Shown: positions 9,074-13,266 of the stretch, piece after piece
How the letters are laid out: every line of letters starts with the position of its first letter
Numbering within the stretch: the stretch's first letter is position 1
Origin: a virus
IMG/VR virus record: IMGVR_UViG_3300037493_005727
Span: 5,091 to 69,090 of that record
Length of the DNA: 64,000 bases
Reading direction: 5' to 3' (one strand)
Program-made: the position numbers and the translations under genes
Notes under the pieces: generated by a model
Seen by the model: the letters and a program-made list of their open reading frames with translations, nothing else
The model's database searches: none
Told to the model about the DNA's origin: nothing

Positions 9074-9087
9074 GTGCTTCCTCCTTG

Positions 9088-9159
9088 AGCGGGCAGTGGG
9101 ATTCGAACCCACGACCAACAGCTTGGAAGGCTGTGACTCTACCCCTGAGTTATGCCCGC
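9088..9159 (-). tRNA. tRNA-Gly (anticodon UCC)
   Basis: Minus-strand cloverleaf GCGGGCATAACTCAGGGGTAGAGTCACAGCCTTCCAAGCTGTTGGTCGTGGGTTCGAATCCCACTGCCCGCT. Anticodon loop CUUCCAA. Perfect 7-bp acceptor, T-loop TTCGAAT. Confidence 0.85.
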
Positions 9160-9167
9160 TTACGACA

Positions 9168-9239
9168 TAGACGCGGAGGGCTTCGAACCCCCGACCCGCT
9201 GCGTGTAAAGCAGCCGCTCTACCCCTGAGCTACGCGTCT
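9168..9239 (-). tRNA. tRNA-Val (anticodon UAC)
   Basis: AGACGCGTAGCTCAGGGGTAGAGCGGCTGCTTTACACGCAGCGGGTCGGGGGTTCGAAGCCCTCCGCGTCT plus discriminator A. Anticodon loop UUUACAC. U8, A9 and D-stem GCTC/GAGC present. Confidence 0.85.
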
Positions 9240-9240
9240 G

Positions 9241-9314
9241 TGGGACCGGAGGGACTTGAACCCTCAACCCTCGGATTAAAAATCCGATGCTCTAGCCAGT
9301 TGAGCTACGATCCC
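9241..9314 (-). tRNA. tRNA-Lys (anticodon UUU)
   Basis: GGGATCGTAGCTCAACTGGCTAGAGCATCGGATTTTTAATCCGAGGGTTGAGGGTTCAAGTCCCTCCGGTCCCA. Anticodon loop UUUUUAA; discriminator A. Confidence 0.85.
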
Positions 9315-9322
9315 TACCTCAG

Positions 9323-9700
9323 TTACCCGAGGTCTTCAGCCTTCAGCGTTTTTCGACCAGCGGCCACAGCCTTGGTGATCGCCTCCTCCACCATCGACTG
9401 AACTTCGCCACTGAGCTTCTCGATGAGCTCCTCGCCCGTGCGGATGTCTTTCGCCTTGGCGATTGCCTTCACCTTGCTGGTCACTACGAGAATGTCGGAC
9501 ATGCTTTCCTCTGAGTGTGGTCCCGGACAGTCACAGTCTGCGTAGTGTACCTGACAGTCAGGACACCACGGCTCGCCGCAGCCATCCGGGCATGGGATGC
9601 AATCTGCGGCGAGCTTCATCTTCCTCTTTCGTCTTCCTGTCGGTGTCCTCGTGATGCCGTTTCCTGGCCACCGCGAAGCTGGAACAACGATGACCTTCAT
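9323..9700 (-). CDS. Cys-rich zinc-binding domain plus C-terminal histone-fold domain (archaeal HMf/H4-like signature)
   Basis: 125 aa. ATG overlaps the stop of the upstream vWA gene (TGATGA). C-terminal DILVVTSKVKAIAKAKDIRTGEELIEKLSGEVQSMVEEAITKAVAAGRKTLKAEDLG aligns residue-by-residue to archaeal histone HMfB (alpha1, L1, alpha2), including the hallmark AGRKT-I/L-KAEDI motif. alpha3 is truncated. Preceded by CIPCPDGCGEPWCPDCQVHYADCDC. Confidence 0.55.
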   Translation of the reverse strand: MKVIVVPASRWPGNGITRTPTGRRKRKMKLAADCIPCPDGCGEPWCPDCQVHYADCDCPGPHSEESMSDILVVTSKVKAIAKAKDIRTGEELIEKLSGEVQSMVEEAITKAVAAGRKTLKAEDLG

Positions 9701-10761
9701 CAGTAGTCCGAAACCTCATACAGGAACTTCGTACCGCCGAGAAGCTTCCGGTTGTTCGAGGTGCTCTGGATGAAGCAGCGGTAGCCGCCGAGGTCACCCG
9801 GCTTCACCGTCGCGTCTTCGCCGATGGGCATCCCGGCGATCTCTCGAGCCTTGTCACCCGAGTAGAAGTCGCCCGTCGACTTCTCCTGGAGGATGACCTC
9901 CTTGTAGTGCTGGACCTTGACGGACTTCGTGAACTCGTAGAACCCTCGGCCGACCTTGAACTCGACTCCCTGGTCACGCACGAACTCTGAGATGGGCGTG
10001 TCGTCTTCCACCTTCATCATCTGGAACCGCCCCGGCGGGACGGCGTCCATGTTGGCCTTCGACGCCGCTTCGTCCTTGCGCCCGAGCATCCGGTTGAAGC
10101 TCCGGCGCATCGAACGGTTCAAGCGTCCGTCCGCCTTCAGCTCCTCTTCGAACTCCTTGAGCTTCTCATCGCCCTGCTGCTTGTAGGCGACCGCGAAGAT
10201 CATGTCGGTGATGCTGGAGAACTGGTCGAGTTCCAGGTGGAACCCTCCGGTCTCTTCAGCGATGTCCTCGTAGAACTTCGTCGCGTGCTTGCGGTTCAGC
10301 GCCTGAACGCCGTAGACCTGGATGCCCGCCTCGAGCAGCAGCTTGAGCTCGTTGCGCCAGTCCAGCTTCTTGGTGTTCAGCGCCTCGTTCTTCCCGTGCG
10401 GCACGTCATCGCCGATGAGCACGAGAACCTTCTTCTTGCCAGCGGACCAACTGAACGTCTTGGACTCGTGCAGCACGAGCTCGTAGCACTCAGCGGCGTC
10501 GCCACCTCCCGTCGGCTTCACGTTGGTGATGAAGTCGGCGATCTTCTTCTGGTCTGTGCTGAAGTCGAGATGCTTGGTGACGTACGTCGACCCTGCGTCG
10601 CAGTAGTCGCCGTGCGCGATGACACCGATGCGAATGTCCGGCACGTCCTTGAACAGCCGCTTCACCGTCTCCTTTACCTCGCGGCGAACCTGCGTCAGGC
10701 AGGGGTACATCGACCCGGTGGTGTCGAAACTGAAAATCACTTCGATTGCGTCTTTGCTCAT
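9700..10761 (-). CDS. von Willebrand factor A (vWA) domain protein
   Basis: IEVIFSFDTTGSM (MIDAS-like D-x-T-x-S) ... IRIGVIAHGDYCD ... VLVLIGDDVPHG. Start chosen at MSKDAIEV (ATG 10759-10761, AAGGAA RBS), just downstream of the previous gene's stop. Confidence 0.65.
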   Translation of the reverse strand: MSKDAIEVIFSFDTTGSMYPCLTQVRREVKETVKRLFKDVPDIRIGVIAHGDYCDAGSTYVTKHLDFSTDQKKIADFITNVKPTGGGDAAECYELVLHESKTFSWSAGKKKVLVLIGDDVPHGKNEALNTKKLDWRNELKLLLEAGIQVYGVQALNRKHATKFYEDIAEETGGFHLELDQFSSITDMIFAVAYKQQGDEKLKEFEEELKADGRLNRSMRRSFNRMLGRKDEAASKANMDAVPPGRFQMMKVEDDTPISEFVRDQGVEFKVGRGFYEFTKSVKVQHYKEVILQEKSTGDFYSGDKAREIAGMPIGEDATVKPGDLGGYRCFIQSTSNNRKLLGGTKFLYEVSDY

Positions 10762-10780
10762 TTCGGTTCCTTGGTGGTGG

Positions 10781-11389
10781 TTAGCCCGCGTCCTCTTCGG
10801 CGTCTTCGTCATCAGCGGAGTCAACGGATCCACTGCTGACCTTCTCCATGATCTCTACGAAGCGCTGCTCTGCTTTCTTGTGGGCGACTTCCCAGATCTT
10901 GTCGTTCAGGAGGTGCGCCAGTCTTTCCTTGTACGACCTCTCGTAGGCCGCCTTGATCCCCTTCACCTTCGGGTCACCGACGACCAACCCTTCGATGAAC
11001 CCCGGGATCGCCAGTTTGATTTGCGTAAGGGTGTGTTCCCCCAACGCGCGGGCGAGGGCGCTTTGTTCGTGGTGAGAGTCAATCTCCCATTTGCCATCGT
11101 GCCAGTGGTCTTTCTTAACGCCCAGGGCCGTGCAGATTATTTTCCACGCGGCTTCGTTGAGGTGCGAGTCGATCTTACGGGGGAGGTTCTCAATCTCCTC
11201 GATGAGGCTCTCTTTCATTCGCGCGTCGAGCTCAACCTTCAACTCCTCGACGCTCATCTTCTGGAGCCGCTTCTCGTCCTTCGCGTCCTCTTCCTGCTCT
11301 TCCCTTGATCGATAGCCCATTTTCCCTCGGGTTGTTGAGTCGTTTTTCTTCTTGCCGCAAAACTTCTTCAAGGTTCGCAAAGGCACCAT
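10781..11389 (-). CDS. hypothetical protein with strongly acidic C-terminal tail (SADDEDAEEDAG)
   Basis: 202-aa ORF with good GC3. Its 5' 158 nt overlap ORF 11232..11666 in another frame, so the true start is probably internal (MSVEELK or MKESLIEE). Confidence 0.45.
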   Translation of the reverse strand: MVPLRTLKKFCGKKKNDSTTRGKMGYRSREEQEEDAKDEKRLQKMSVEELKVELDARMKESLIEEIENLPRKIDSHLNEAAWKIICTALGVKKDHWHDGKWEIDSHHEQSALARALGEHTLTQIKLAIPGFIEGLVVGDPKVKGIKAAYERSYKERLAHLLNDKIWEVAHKKAEQRFVEIMEKVSSGSVDSADDEDAEEDAG

Positions 11390-11666
11390 CCACAGTACGA
11401 CTCGCCGGAGTCCAGTGCAGGATCGCTACGTCGGCTGCGACGTACACAAGGGTACGCATCAGCATGCCAGGTCCCGCACCTTGGGGGTCTAGAACACCAG
11501 GGGCGTGAACGTGAAACTGCAGCAGCCCCTCGCGCCCCGGGGCGAAGGAGCTCAAGAGCCCCTGCGTCTGCGGGTCCATGAAGAACTGGAACACCTTGTC
11601 TACGCACTCCGAGCAAGGCTCGGCCATCTCAGCCTTGAGCTGAACGAGAGCTTCCTCTTTCGTCAT
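11232..11666 (-). CDS. hypothetical protein
   Basis: 144 aa. N-terminal 110 aa has a coding-like composition. C-terminal 35 aa are low-complexity and overlap the next gene (possible frameshift or genuine overlap). Confidence 0.4.
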   Translation of the reverse strand: MTKEEALVQLKAEMAEPCSECVDKVFQFFMDPQTQGLLSSFAPGREGLLQFHVHAPGVLDPQGAGPGMLMRTLVYVAADVAILHWTPASRTVDGAFANLEEVLRQEEKRLNNPRENGLSIKGRAGRGREGREAAPEDERRGVEG

Positions 11667-11669
11667 GGC

Positions 11670-12002
11670 TCAGTAGTAGTGGTTGCCGACGGCGATACCA
11701 AGCCGCTGGAGATCCTTCTGGTCAAGCCGGTACGTGTCCTTCTGGACGACGTGGTCGATCATGAAGGTGTACCACCCGGCCTGGTCCTTGTGCTCCCGCG
11801 CCTTCTTGGAGAGCTGCTCCACTGGAGTACCCCCGGAGACCTTGCCGACCTCCATGTCCTCTTCGATGGCGGCGATCTGAGCCCCGAGCTCCTTGGCCTT
11901 CTTCTCGTAGGTCTCAGCCTTGCTCTTGTGGTGCTCGAGCCGCTCCGTGAGGATCTTGATGAGCTCGTCCGACTTCACGTCAATTTTCAAACCTTCGATC
12001 AT
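11670..12002 (-). CDS. hypothetical coiled-coil protein
   Basis: 110-aa ORF. Confidence 0.45.
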   Translation of the reverse strand: MIEGLKIDVKSDELIKILTERLEHHKSKAETYEKKAKELGAQIAAIEEDMEVGKVSGGTPVEQLSKKAREHKDQAGWYTFMIDHVVQKDTYRLDQKDLQRLGIAVGNHYY

Positions 12003-12280
12003 TTAGTCTTCCCTTGTAGTTTCTTGATACAGCGTTGAACAGCTTCTTTCAGCTCCGGCGAGGTGATGTGCTGATACTCCATGTCATGCTCTTTGAGCTC
12101 GAGTGCCACCAGCTGAAGCGTGGCTAAAACATCAGCGCGCAGCTCGGTGACCGCGTCGTACGCGGCCCCTTCGAGCTCCATACCGATCTCGGCGATGATG
12201 CCCTTGGCCTCTTTCGAAATCTTGAGGCCCGTCATCACCCGAAGAAATGCCTTCTTGCTACGAGGTTTACGTAGACCCAT
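11999..12280 (-). CDS. candidate second histone-fold protein (H2A-like L2/alpha3 signature)
   Basis: Start MGLRKPRSKK at 12278-12280 with GAGAGGA RBS 7 nt upstream. Central GAAYDAVTELRADVLATLQLVALELKEHDMEYQHITSPELKEAVQR parallels H2A [43 protein letters not shown]. Helix lengths fit alpha1-L1-alpha2-L2-alpha3. Confidence 0.4.
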   Translation of the reverse strand: MGLRKPRSKKAFLRVMTGLKISKEAKGIIAEIGMELEGAAYDAVTELRADVLATLQLVALELKEHDMEYQHITSPELKEAVQRCIKKLQGKTK

Positions 12281-12327
12281 AGTTTTTCCTCTCCCCTTGT
12301 ACCACCAGGGGCACCTATACTTCGACC

Positions 12328-13266
12328 ATGCTGAATGAGCTCGCATACGCCCAAGGCGTCGATGACGGAATGGCGAAATTCGCCATCAGTAAGTACCGGC
12401 AGTACGCCCGAGACACAACGCAGCAGGCGTGGAACAGCCAGCAACCCGCGGACATCGCCAAAGCTCGTGCCGCCGTTCAGGGGGCCTACAAGCCCCGCGT
12501 TCTCGGGTCCGGGGCAGAAGGAACAGCCACACTGCGCATGATGCCGCAGGCTGCGGCCGGGGGAGCGCTTACCCCGACTGTCCGAAAAGAGTTCAACCCT
12601 AACGCTGCGTTGGCCTCGCCAGAAATGATCAATCGACGCATCGCGATGGGGCCCGACCTGAACGAAAGCGGAAACTTCGCCAAGTACTACGGACACGGAC
12701 AGACCGCTGCGGGTAAAAAGTACATCGACTCCGAACTCATCCCAGGGAAGATCGCCCCAGGCGCGGACGTCTCGAAGGCTCAGGCGAACATTGACAGGAG
12801 CGTTCGTTCCGTCGGTATGAAGTCCGGGATGGGCCACATGGCCGCCAAAGACATTCGGGCGGAGAACCTCGGGGTCAACCCCAAGACCGGGAAGACTGTT
12901 GCTCTCGACTACATGCCCATGAAGCGGCAGGAGACCTACGACCCGCGATACGCTCGAATGAACGGGTCTCCTGATCCGACGAGGCCGTACCCCACAGGCC
13001 AAGGGGCAGCGCTATTCCCACATCGGGCTAGCGAATTCGCAGATCCTGGCGGGATTGAACAAAAGATGATGCAAGGGGAGATGAAGAAGAGAATGCAGTC
13101 GAACCCTCAGTCGGTTCTCCCTCCCAACGCCAAAACTCCTGCGCCCGCCGCAGCTCCCGCCCCTGTGGGGCCTGGAACGGTAGCGGCAAGACCCGCGCTG
13201 ATGCCGCAAAAAGACCAACCGGCGGCCCCTCCTGTCGCGGGGCCCTCCGTGTTCGGATCCCTTTGA
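12328..13266 (+). CDS. hypothetical protein (Pro/Ala-rich C-terminus)
   Basis: 312-aa ORF with good GC3 on the plus strand between minus-strand blocks. Antisense ORF 12235..13002 rejected. Confidence 0.5.
   Translation: MLNELAYAQGVDDGMAKFAISKYRQYARDTTQQAWNSQQPADIAKARAAVQGAYKPRVLGSGAEGTATLRMMPQAAAGGALTPTVRKEFNPNAALASPEMINRRIAMGPDLNESGNFAKYYGHGQTAAGKKYIDSELIPGKIAPGADVSKAQANIDRSVRSVGMKSGMGHMAAKDIRAENLGVNPKTGKTVALDYMPMKRQETYDPRYARMNGSPDPTRPYPTGQGAALFPHRASEFADPGGIEQKMMQGEMKKRMQSNPQSVLPPNAKTPAPAAAPAPVGPGTVAARPALMPQKDQPAAPPVAGPSVFGSL

Follow-up and report, generated by a model that had tools for sequence, protein, structure and literature searches.

A predicted bacterial-type histone with a basic tail and a putative zinc module, encoded in a leftward gene block of a large tailed phage

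The DNA analysed here, called the window, is a stretch of 64 kb (positions 5,091 to 69,090) of the IMG/VR virus record IMGVR_UViG_3300037493_005727 with a G+C content of about 60%. Between 9323 and 12346, six open reading frames (ORFs) follow each other on the minus strand; in the direction of reading, these are g115, g110, g144, g202, the gene of a vWA protein and g125, which would encode a composite histone and is the main subject of this report. An earlier note, made from the letters alone, had listed this run of ORFs correctly and had proposed that they form one DNA-organisation module framed by two histone-fold genes. Among GenBank phages, the sole annotated relative is 'Virus Rctr197k' (197 kb, Caudoviricetes), a near-identical contig in IMG/VR measures 187 kb, and exact records of the proteins are found on a 190-kb contig. 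Therefore, the DNA is that of a tailed phage, a large one of about 190 kb.

Gene models were obtained by comparing the minus-strand reading with database records and homologues (Table 1). For g115 and g202, longer ORFs reaching further upstream were discarded, the GC content of the extensions by codon position being that of non-coding DNA. Overlaps of 1-4 nucleotides (nt) had been described for the block, which holds for two of the five junctions: g115 and g110 overlap by 4 nt (ATGA), the vWA gene and g125 by 1 nt (TGATG). Of the other three, g110/g144 is a gap of 3 nt, g144/g202 an overlap of 89 nt, and g202/vWA a gap of 19 nt containing AAGGA. Neither the common orientation nor the tight spacing is special to the six genes; judged by AT skew and the layout of ORFs, the run on the minus strand extends from about 12280 through the transfer RNA (tRNA) genes at 9087-9314 to about 2350, and the lower boundary of the block is therefore arbitrary. 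The intergenic region between g115 and the oppositely oriented gene at 12328-13266 is likely a divergent promoter, with no consensus promoter found there.

Table 1. Features of the leftward block and its flanks (positions in the window; aa, amino acids)
Feature	Position	Strand	Basis or remark
tRNA-Gly, tRNA-Val, tRNA-Lys	9087-9314	-	ARAGORN; directly 3' of g125, same strand
g125, predicted composite phage histone, 125 aa	9323-9700	-	tail, zinc module and histone fold
g125 histone fold, HBb-like, alpha3-truncated, followed by stop codon	9326-9502	-	last 59 residues
Possible internal product, bare 59-aa histone	9326-9502	-	ATG at 9502 preceded by AGAGGAAAGC
g125 putative zinc module, 8 ligands, residues 28-66, 39 aa	9503-9619	-	conservation of C/H
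g125 basic N-terminal tail, 27 aa, net charge +8	9620-9700	-	codon comparison with L047
vWA/MIDAS protein, 353 aa, conserved C-terminal domain	9700-10761	-	Pfam VWA, PHROG 26613
g202, 179 aa, helical, acidic C-terminal tail	10781-11320	-	exact record P0039
g144, conserved part 11325-11666	11232-11666	-	homologues in relatives
g110, 110 aa, heptad-repeat N-terminal half	11670-12002	-	heptad pattern, weak profile matches
g115, 93 aa, basic, helical, first gene of the leftward block	11999-12280	-	exact record P0001
Divergent gene, 312 aa	12328-13266	+	start codon about 48 nt away from that of g115; syntenic in L040 (58% identity)

The histone fold of g125 was identified by its similarity to HBb (Bd0055), the 'bacterial dimer' alpha3 histone of Bdellovibrio bacteriovorus (PDB 8CMP, 8FVX; PMC10627809, PMC11317129). 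Using phmmer against the PDB, residues 67-124 of g125 matched residues 3-61 of the HBb chain with an E-value of 9.8e-6. A profile built from nine full-length g125 homologues matched HBb with E 1.3e-10 and reached HMfA/B weakly. The fold also aligns with the solved alpha3-type structure 9F2C and the DUF1931 protein 9QT0, and Pfam CBFD_NFYB_HMF and NCBIfam archaea_histone gave weak, consistent matches. With a hidden Markov model (HMM) for alpha3 histones, g125 was the sole match in the whole window (E 1.4e-30), and the 59-aa forms of the family carry the JGI label 'histone H3/H4'. The RxTxxxxD motif is present: R89, K90, T91 and D96 (98-aa numbering) are invariant in all nine full-length sequences, K90 and T91 even in 22 of 22 family sequences. 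HBb and g125 align from end to end over 59 residues and have in common the truncated helix 3, the RD clamp (R51 and D58 in HBb numbering, both kept), the KT pair and, where helix 1 begins, TSKVK. As read from the sequence, helix 3 would be reduced to 3-4 residues, as in the alpha3-truncated state of Schwab et al. 2024 (PMC11390915): g125 ends in ...KAEDLG, two residues past the clamp Asp.

Hu et al. named ten HBb residues which touch DNA (PMC11317129). Seven of them are kept in g125 (T8, S9, K10, K12, K16, K52 and T53) and three are altered (N22->R, S24->G and R57->E). The net charge is 0 for the g125 fold compared to +3 in HBb, +8 for the N-terminal 27 residues and -7 for the zinc module. In contrast to HBb, g125 is phage-encoded and carries the tail of 27 aa and the module of 39 aa in addition to a neutral fold with changed contacts. 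By homology, we regard g125 as a genuine bacterial-type (HBb/Bd0055-type) alpha3-truncated histone carried by a large phage. A histone-fold zinc protein had been proposed for this gene before, and the HBb homology together with the conserved eight-ligand zinc module bears this out.

The ligands of the putative zinc module are C7, C10, C14, C19, C/H22, H25, C29 and C/H31 in module numbering; at each of these positions, 85% or more of the 38 homologous modules have C or H. Their spacing reads C-x2-C-x2/3-C-x4-C-x2-[CH]-x2-H-x3-C-x-[CH] and is followed by an invariant G-P; eight conserved positions would be enough for two zinc ions. No Pfam family was found for the module, and a ZZ domain was absent at E-values up to 1 for g125 and up to 0.1 for the 38 module homologues. 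When 1.84 billion cluster representatives were searched with a whole-g125 profile in HMMER, 695 proteins matched, most of them with one half only, i.e. either with the histone half (singlets and doublets) or with the zinc half. Among the latter are many stand-alone proteins of 47-110 aa and one fusion to endonuclease VII (P0064). The full-length architecture is confined to two clusters at 50% identity. As a side observation, this two-zinc module, with 35 aa and of the form K-[FL]-A-x-[DE]-C-x2-C-x2-C-G-E-P-W-C-x2-C-x2-H-Y-A-[DE]-C-x-[CH]-x-G-P, is widespread without having a Pfam family (P0072, P0086, P0064 and others).

Zinc module and histone are fused in the window and in the relatives L002, L042, L045, L047 and L049. 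In L043, they form two ORFs in which the zinc stop overlaps the histone start (ATGGCTGA), and in L040 the histone fold stands alone. The two ORFs of L043 (4577-5005 and 4974-5177) were also inspected for themselves: the zinc module follows right after the vWA stop in the +1 frame, and no obvious ATG, GTG or TTG was found near its beginning.

For g125, a start at Met28 (giving 98 aa) was favoured at first, the extension being absent from L002 and looking non-coding by its GC content. This start was ruled out by the codon changes relative to L047. The tail codons of the two sequences differ by nine synonymous and three non-synonymous changes, with 2, 3 and 8 differences at codon positions 1, 2 and 3; hence, the tail is part of the translated protein, and the TGATG shared with the vWA stop is a real overlap. 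A second, shorter product was considered as well. Exactly at the boundary between zinc module and histone fold, a Shine-Dalgarno-like AGAGGAAAGC is followed by an ATG (9502-9515, minus strand), and gene callers often give only the 59-aa form in this family (P0027-P0031, P0034-P0038). Both make an internally initiated bare histone plausible, and the g125 gene may give two products, one of 125 aa and one of 59 aa.

As an alternative, g125 might have a role other than global DNA organisation: the fold might serve dimerisation, and the zinc module or the tail would have a specific task, e.g. the control of phage or host transcription or the targeting of a host nucleoid protein. The neutral fold and the exchanges R57->E and S24->G are in line with such a role, as is the occurrence of the zinc module with other effector domains, e.g. 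endonuclease VII. Two remarks in PMC11390915 point the same way: the expression of ZZ histones in Bdellovibrio is poor, and roles of some histone-fold groups may be non-architectural. However, the parts which contact the DNA backbone in HBb, i.e. RD clamp, KT pair and the T-S-K-x-K with which helix 1 begins, are kept in g125 and are invariant or nearly so in its family. A non-architectural function of this kind is judged quite unlikely.

Schwab et al. 2024 (PMC11390915) defined the alpha3 histones, with bacterial dimers, ZZ histones and 'phage histones' among them, and Liu et al. 2024 described BBVH, i.e. Bd0055-like viral histones of Caudoviricetes from IMG/VR with a predicted DNA-bending dimer (bioRxiv 10.1101/2024.12.06.627149). 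BBVH and g125 are alike in being Bd0055-type histones of tailed phages on IMG/VR contigs. The BBVH preprint mentions zinc zero times, whereas g125 has a zinc module; the JGI/IMG gene calls of the g125 family are the truncated 59-aa form, hence, the fusion would have escaped that survey. ZZ histones share with g125 an N-terminal two-zinc module and a C-terminal alpha3 histone resembling the bacterial dimer. They are bacterial, and their ZZ domain of about 60 aa has one C4 and one C2H2 site, whereas the module of g125 spans about 25 residues from first to last ligand with a different spacing, has no Pfam ZZ match, is found in phages and also stands alone, and occurs in the full architecture in only two clusters. 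At the sequence level, g125 thus has the C-terminal histone of a ZZ histone and lacks its zinc finger. The 'phage histones' of Schwab et al., which are the VTTH of Liu et al., have an alpha3 fold in tailed phages as well. Their fold is N-terminal and followed by a C-terminal tetramerisation helix, and RxTxxxxD is missing; in g125, the fold is C-terminal with nothing after it and the motif is kept, which sets it outside this group. By homology, g125 is a BBVH/HBb-type histone with a ZZ-histone-like layout.

Concerning the surroundings of the histone gene, an SNF2-family helicase is encoded at 16930-18372 (+), about 4.6 kb from it, and is syntenic in the histone-bearing L042, L047 and L049. An association of histones with SNF2 was reported by Liu et al. 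2024 for giant viruses only.

The two genes g144 and g202 had been suspected to be one gene interrupted by a frameshift at 11232-11389. Homologues of g144 were found in L040, L042, L043, L045 and L049, in each of which it is a gene separate from g202 (in L040, the two overlap by 17 nt). The homology of g144 stops at about 11325, just ahead of the g202 start at 11320. Its last 30 codons are not conserved, and their GC content at codon positions 1, 2 and 3 (0.80/0.60/0.23) is that of a non-coding shadow of the g202 frame. The frameshift was rejected on these grounds: g144 reads 89 nt into g202, and a g144-g202 frameshift fusion does not exist.

For g202, 23 homologues with at least 54% identity to the query were collected, which have a conserved helical core. 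The acidic tail noticed earlier is present and conserved as a feature, 21 of the 23 homologues having a D/E-rich tail of variable length. Neither g202 nor the 23-member family matched any entry of Pfam, PHROG, NCBIfam, PADLOC or PDB, and the AlphaFold model of g202 (pLDDT, predicted local distance difference test, 56) was too poor for a structure search. The name MazG-type pyrophosphatase, given by JGI to two homologues, was dismissed, since Pfam supports it in none of the 23 members. The suggested link to histone chaperones finds no homology to a known chaperone family; an acidic tail by itself is common and not diagnostic. A g202 paralogue of 159 aa (about 30% identity) lies directly upstream of g202 in L042 (5026-5505) and L049 (4027-4506).

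To follow the order of the genes, eight distinct histone contexts were compared (Table 2).

Table 2. Gene order in the eight histone contexts
Context	Order
Window	g115-g110-g144-g202-vWA-histone
L043/44	g115-g110-g144-g202-(extra 245-aa gene)-vWA-histone
L045/46	g110-g144-(extra 182-aa ORF)-g202-vWA-(45-aa ORF)-histone; g115 match absent
L002	g115-g110-(short unrelated segment)-vWA-histone
L040/41	g144-g202-histone
L042	g144-(g202 paralogue)-g202-histone
L049	g144-(g202 paralogue)-g202-histone
L047	histone alone

Any gene of the block except the histone gene can be absent among these contexts. The closest relative, L002, has a vWA protein and a histone which are 96% and 97% identical to those of the window and is without g144 and g202; the vWA gene is missing from L040, L042, L047 and L049. 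With six of the eight contexts, g144-g202 are the usual upstream neighbours of the histone gene. The flanking genes are collinear across the histone-bearing phages compared, and the g144-g202-histone order may be inherited gene order and not functional coupling, because the flanks are collinear and all contexts which share g144, g202 and the histone come from one phage lineage.

It is here that a chromatin module has to be weighed, consisting of the whole block or at least of g144-g202-g125, in which the acidic tail of g202 would make it a chaperone or antagonist of the histone and translational coupling would co-express the genes. Such a module agrees with the homologues of g144 and g202 upstream of the histone in the window, L040, L042, L043, L045 and L049, with a g202 tail which stays acidic in 21 of 23 homologues though its sequence varies, with the opposite charges of g202 (-12) and the g125 tail (+8), and with the tight junctions of the block. 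However, in L002 (histone 97% identical) and L047 the histone gene is present while g144 and g202 are not, and the supporting loci represent one collinear lineage with syntenic flanks, so that independent co-occurrence is absent. Furthermore, g202 resembles no known chaperone family and lacks a usable model, and its acidic tail is of a kind often seen in phage proteins. A chromatin module of this kind is unlikely. Concerning the single DNA-organisation module of the earlier note, one real histone-fold candidate, g125, remains, whereas the frame of two histone-fold genes has to be given up: g115 is no histone (see below), L002 is without g144 and g202, the histone stands alone in L047, and the vWA gene is distributed independently.

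The vWA protein was read from the Met of the 353-aa form, at which every homologue begins, excluding a longer upstream ORF. Pfam VWA matched it with E 3.6e-9 (37.5 bits at a cutoff of 23.8), and the metal-site residues D13-x-T15-x-S17, T84 and D118 are invariant among 19 homologues; the proposed MIDAS-like motif is thereby upheld. The C-terminal 130 residues matched PHROG 26613 only (E 9e-18, function unassigned). In PDB searches by sequence and by profile, nothing significant was found for the vWA protein, g202 or g110. As a candidate component of defence or anti-defence, the vWA protein was dismissed, PADLOC having given no match. The family is present on 37 IMG/VR contigs, many of them larger than 100 kb and the largest of 470 kb. 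Clustering all ORFs of 37-38 viral loci gave no conserved neighbour of the vWA gene; the sole clusters spanning several loci were antisense shadows of the gene itself. The alpha3-histone HMM had no match in the 35 other phage vWA loci, and these 35 large-phage contigs carry none of the remaining block genes either.

In bacterial genomes, 302 matches were found, mainly in filamentous cyanobacteria, myxobacteria and Planctomycetota. These proteins are identical to the phage protein over their full length by 56-62% and agree with it in the MIDAS residues and the C-terminal domain. They differ by being chromosomal and by a neighbourhood which is not reproduced in the phage loci: among the bacterial loci compared (L050-L129), the vWA gene lies 30-350 nt upstream of ligA (NAD-dependent DNA ligase) on the same strand in 42 of 50 cyanobacterial loci. 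This adjacency spans several cyanobacterial orders with differing upstream genes; outside the cyanobacteria, it was seen in 0 of 30 loci. It may indicate that the role of the vWA protein is related to DNA, with no tie to the histone. A published name for the cellular family was not found, and a search of the literature for the vWA-ligA pair or for vWA proteins in jumbo phages gave nothing relevant.

One could take the vWA protein and the zinc-histone for a pair related to DNA ends or repair, the former acting with DNA ligase while the histone holds the DNA. Suggestive are the 1-nt overlap of the vWA stop with the g125 start in both the window and L002, the overlap of the L043 zinc ORF with the vWA 3' end, and the conserved position of the vWA homologues upstream of ligA despite differing upstream genes. 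Yet four histone contexts are without vWA, 35 phage vWA loci are without histone, no ligase is adjacent to vWA in the phage loci, and the ligA linkage is limited to one phylum. Such a pair is very improbable.

The two genes at the beginning of the block encode small helical proteins. The product of g115 (helices at 9-15, 23-68 and 75-89) had been taken for an H2A-like histone; similarity to any histone was found neither in sequence nor in structure, and the assignment does not hold. Its identity to the counterpart in the closest relative is only 45%, compared to 92-97% for the genes nearby; by this comparison, g115, with which the leftward block begins, evolves fast. For g110, the a/d heptad positions I15-L18-L22-H25-A29-Y32-A36-L39-I43-I46-M50 are visible and the matches to Tropomyosin and prefoldin are weak and sub-threshold, so the coiled coil suggested for it is plausible by its heptads, whereas the profile matches do not reach the threshold. 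Homologues of g110 occur only in L002, L043 and L045, i.e. in the closest relatives.

Taking all results together, the promoter-proximal part of the leftward block is read as a mosaic of independently inherited genes, of which g125 is the sole chromatin-type component; we assign this a probability of about 0.68. The histone fold would pair with a second copy by a handshake, and the dimer would touch the DNA backbone non-specifically via the start of helix 1 and two loops, thus bending or coating DNA during infection. The basic tail probably adds DNA affinity, because the fold is without net charge, and the zinc module may add a contact to DNA or to a partner. The internal ribosome-binding site and the ATG at the domain boundary may also give the bare histone of 59 residues. 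Homology, the order of domains, the conserved motifs and the synteny are observations, whereas the roles of tail and zinc module and the two forms belong, like dimerisation and DNA binding, to the model. The vWA gene would stand apart as one which has travelled widely and which, in this sub-lineage, was inserted between g202 and the histone gene. Lineage-specific partners would be g144 and g202, and small helical accessory proteins g110 and g115.

Several points weigh against this reading. S24->G, R57->E and the fold charge of 0 instead of +3 suggest that the DNA affinity of g125 may be lower than in HBb or dependent on the tail, and both dimerisation and DNA binding or bending are what we infer from homology and seven of ten contact residues. 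The g144-g202-histone order in six of eight contexts and the 1-nt overlap of vWA and g125, also seen in L002, could reflect functional coupling, with which the synteny is compatible. Scans of the region for consensus promoters and terminators stayed at chance level and were uninformative on operon structure.

A far-reaching interpretation would be a 'chromatin toolkit'. Here, g125 would have a eukaryote-like layout of basic tail, 'reader-like' zinc module and fold, long and short forms would combine to mixed dimers which tune compaction, g202 would be the chaperone or release factor, and the ligase-linked vWA protein would work on the same DNA. We hold this to be distinctly improbable.

Further genes in the window encode the SNF2-type helicase, an ATP-dependent DNA ligase, a lysozyme or tape-measure-like protein and a homologue of the eukaryotic major vault protein (MVP). 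The latter, an ORF of 919 aa in a large phage (30513-33272, minus strand), lies beside a cluster of tRNA and transfer-messenger RNA (tmRNA) genes. It matched Pfam MVP_shoulder (E 5e-23) and Vault repeats, and phmmer aligned residues 543-875 with 467-807 of MVP in the PDB (E 1e-21). In total, ARAGORN found seven tRNA genes in the window, three of them next to g125 and one elsewhere with an undetermined anticodon, as well as a tmRNA. The second tRNA cluster (33319-34964, minus strand) consists of Ala, one of undetermined type, Ser and Met, together with the phage tmRNA, the tag of which is ANDNVDFPQYALRAA.

It was not until 2023 that histones were established in bacteria. For tailed phages, the first report of Bd0055-like histones is a preprint of 2024, and we know of no role for any phage histone of the Bd0055-like type. 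The idea of a cluster acting as a unit becomes less important, as the evidence favours an ordinary mosaic phage operon. The domain layout predicted for g125, in which a basic tail and a two-zinc module precede the alpha3 histone fold, has not been described previously, and standard gene callers mostly truncate the family to the bare fold of 59 residues. Close relatives show the fusion in three states, namely fused, split into overlapping genes and absent, which makes the family well suited to finding out how a minimal histone is served by an accessory domain. It would also allow testing whether phage histones organise the phage's own DNA or disturb the host nucleoid.

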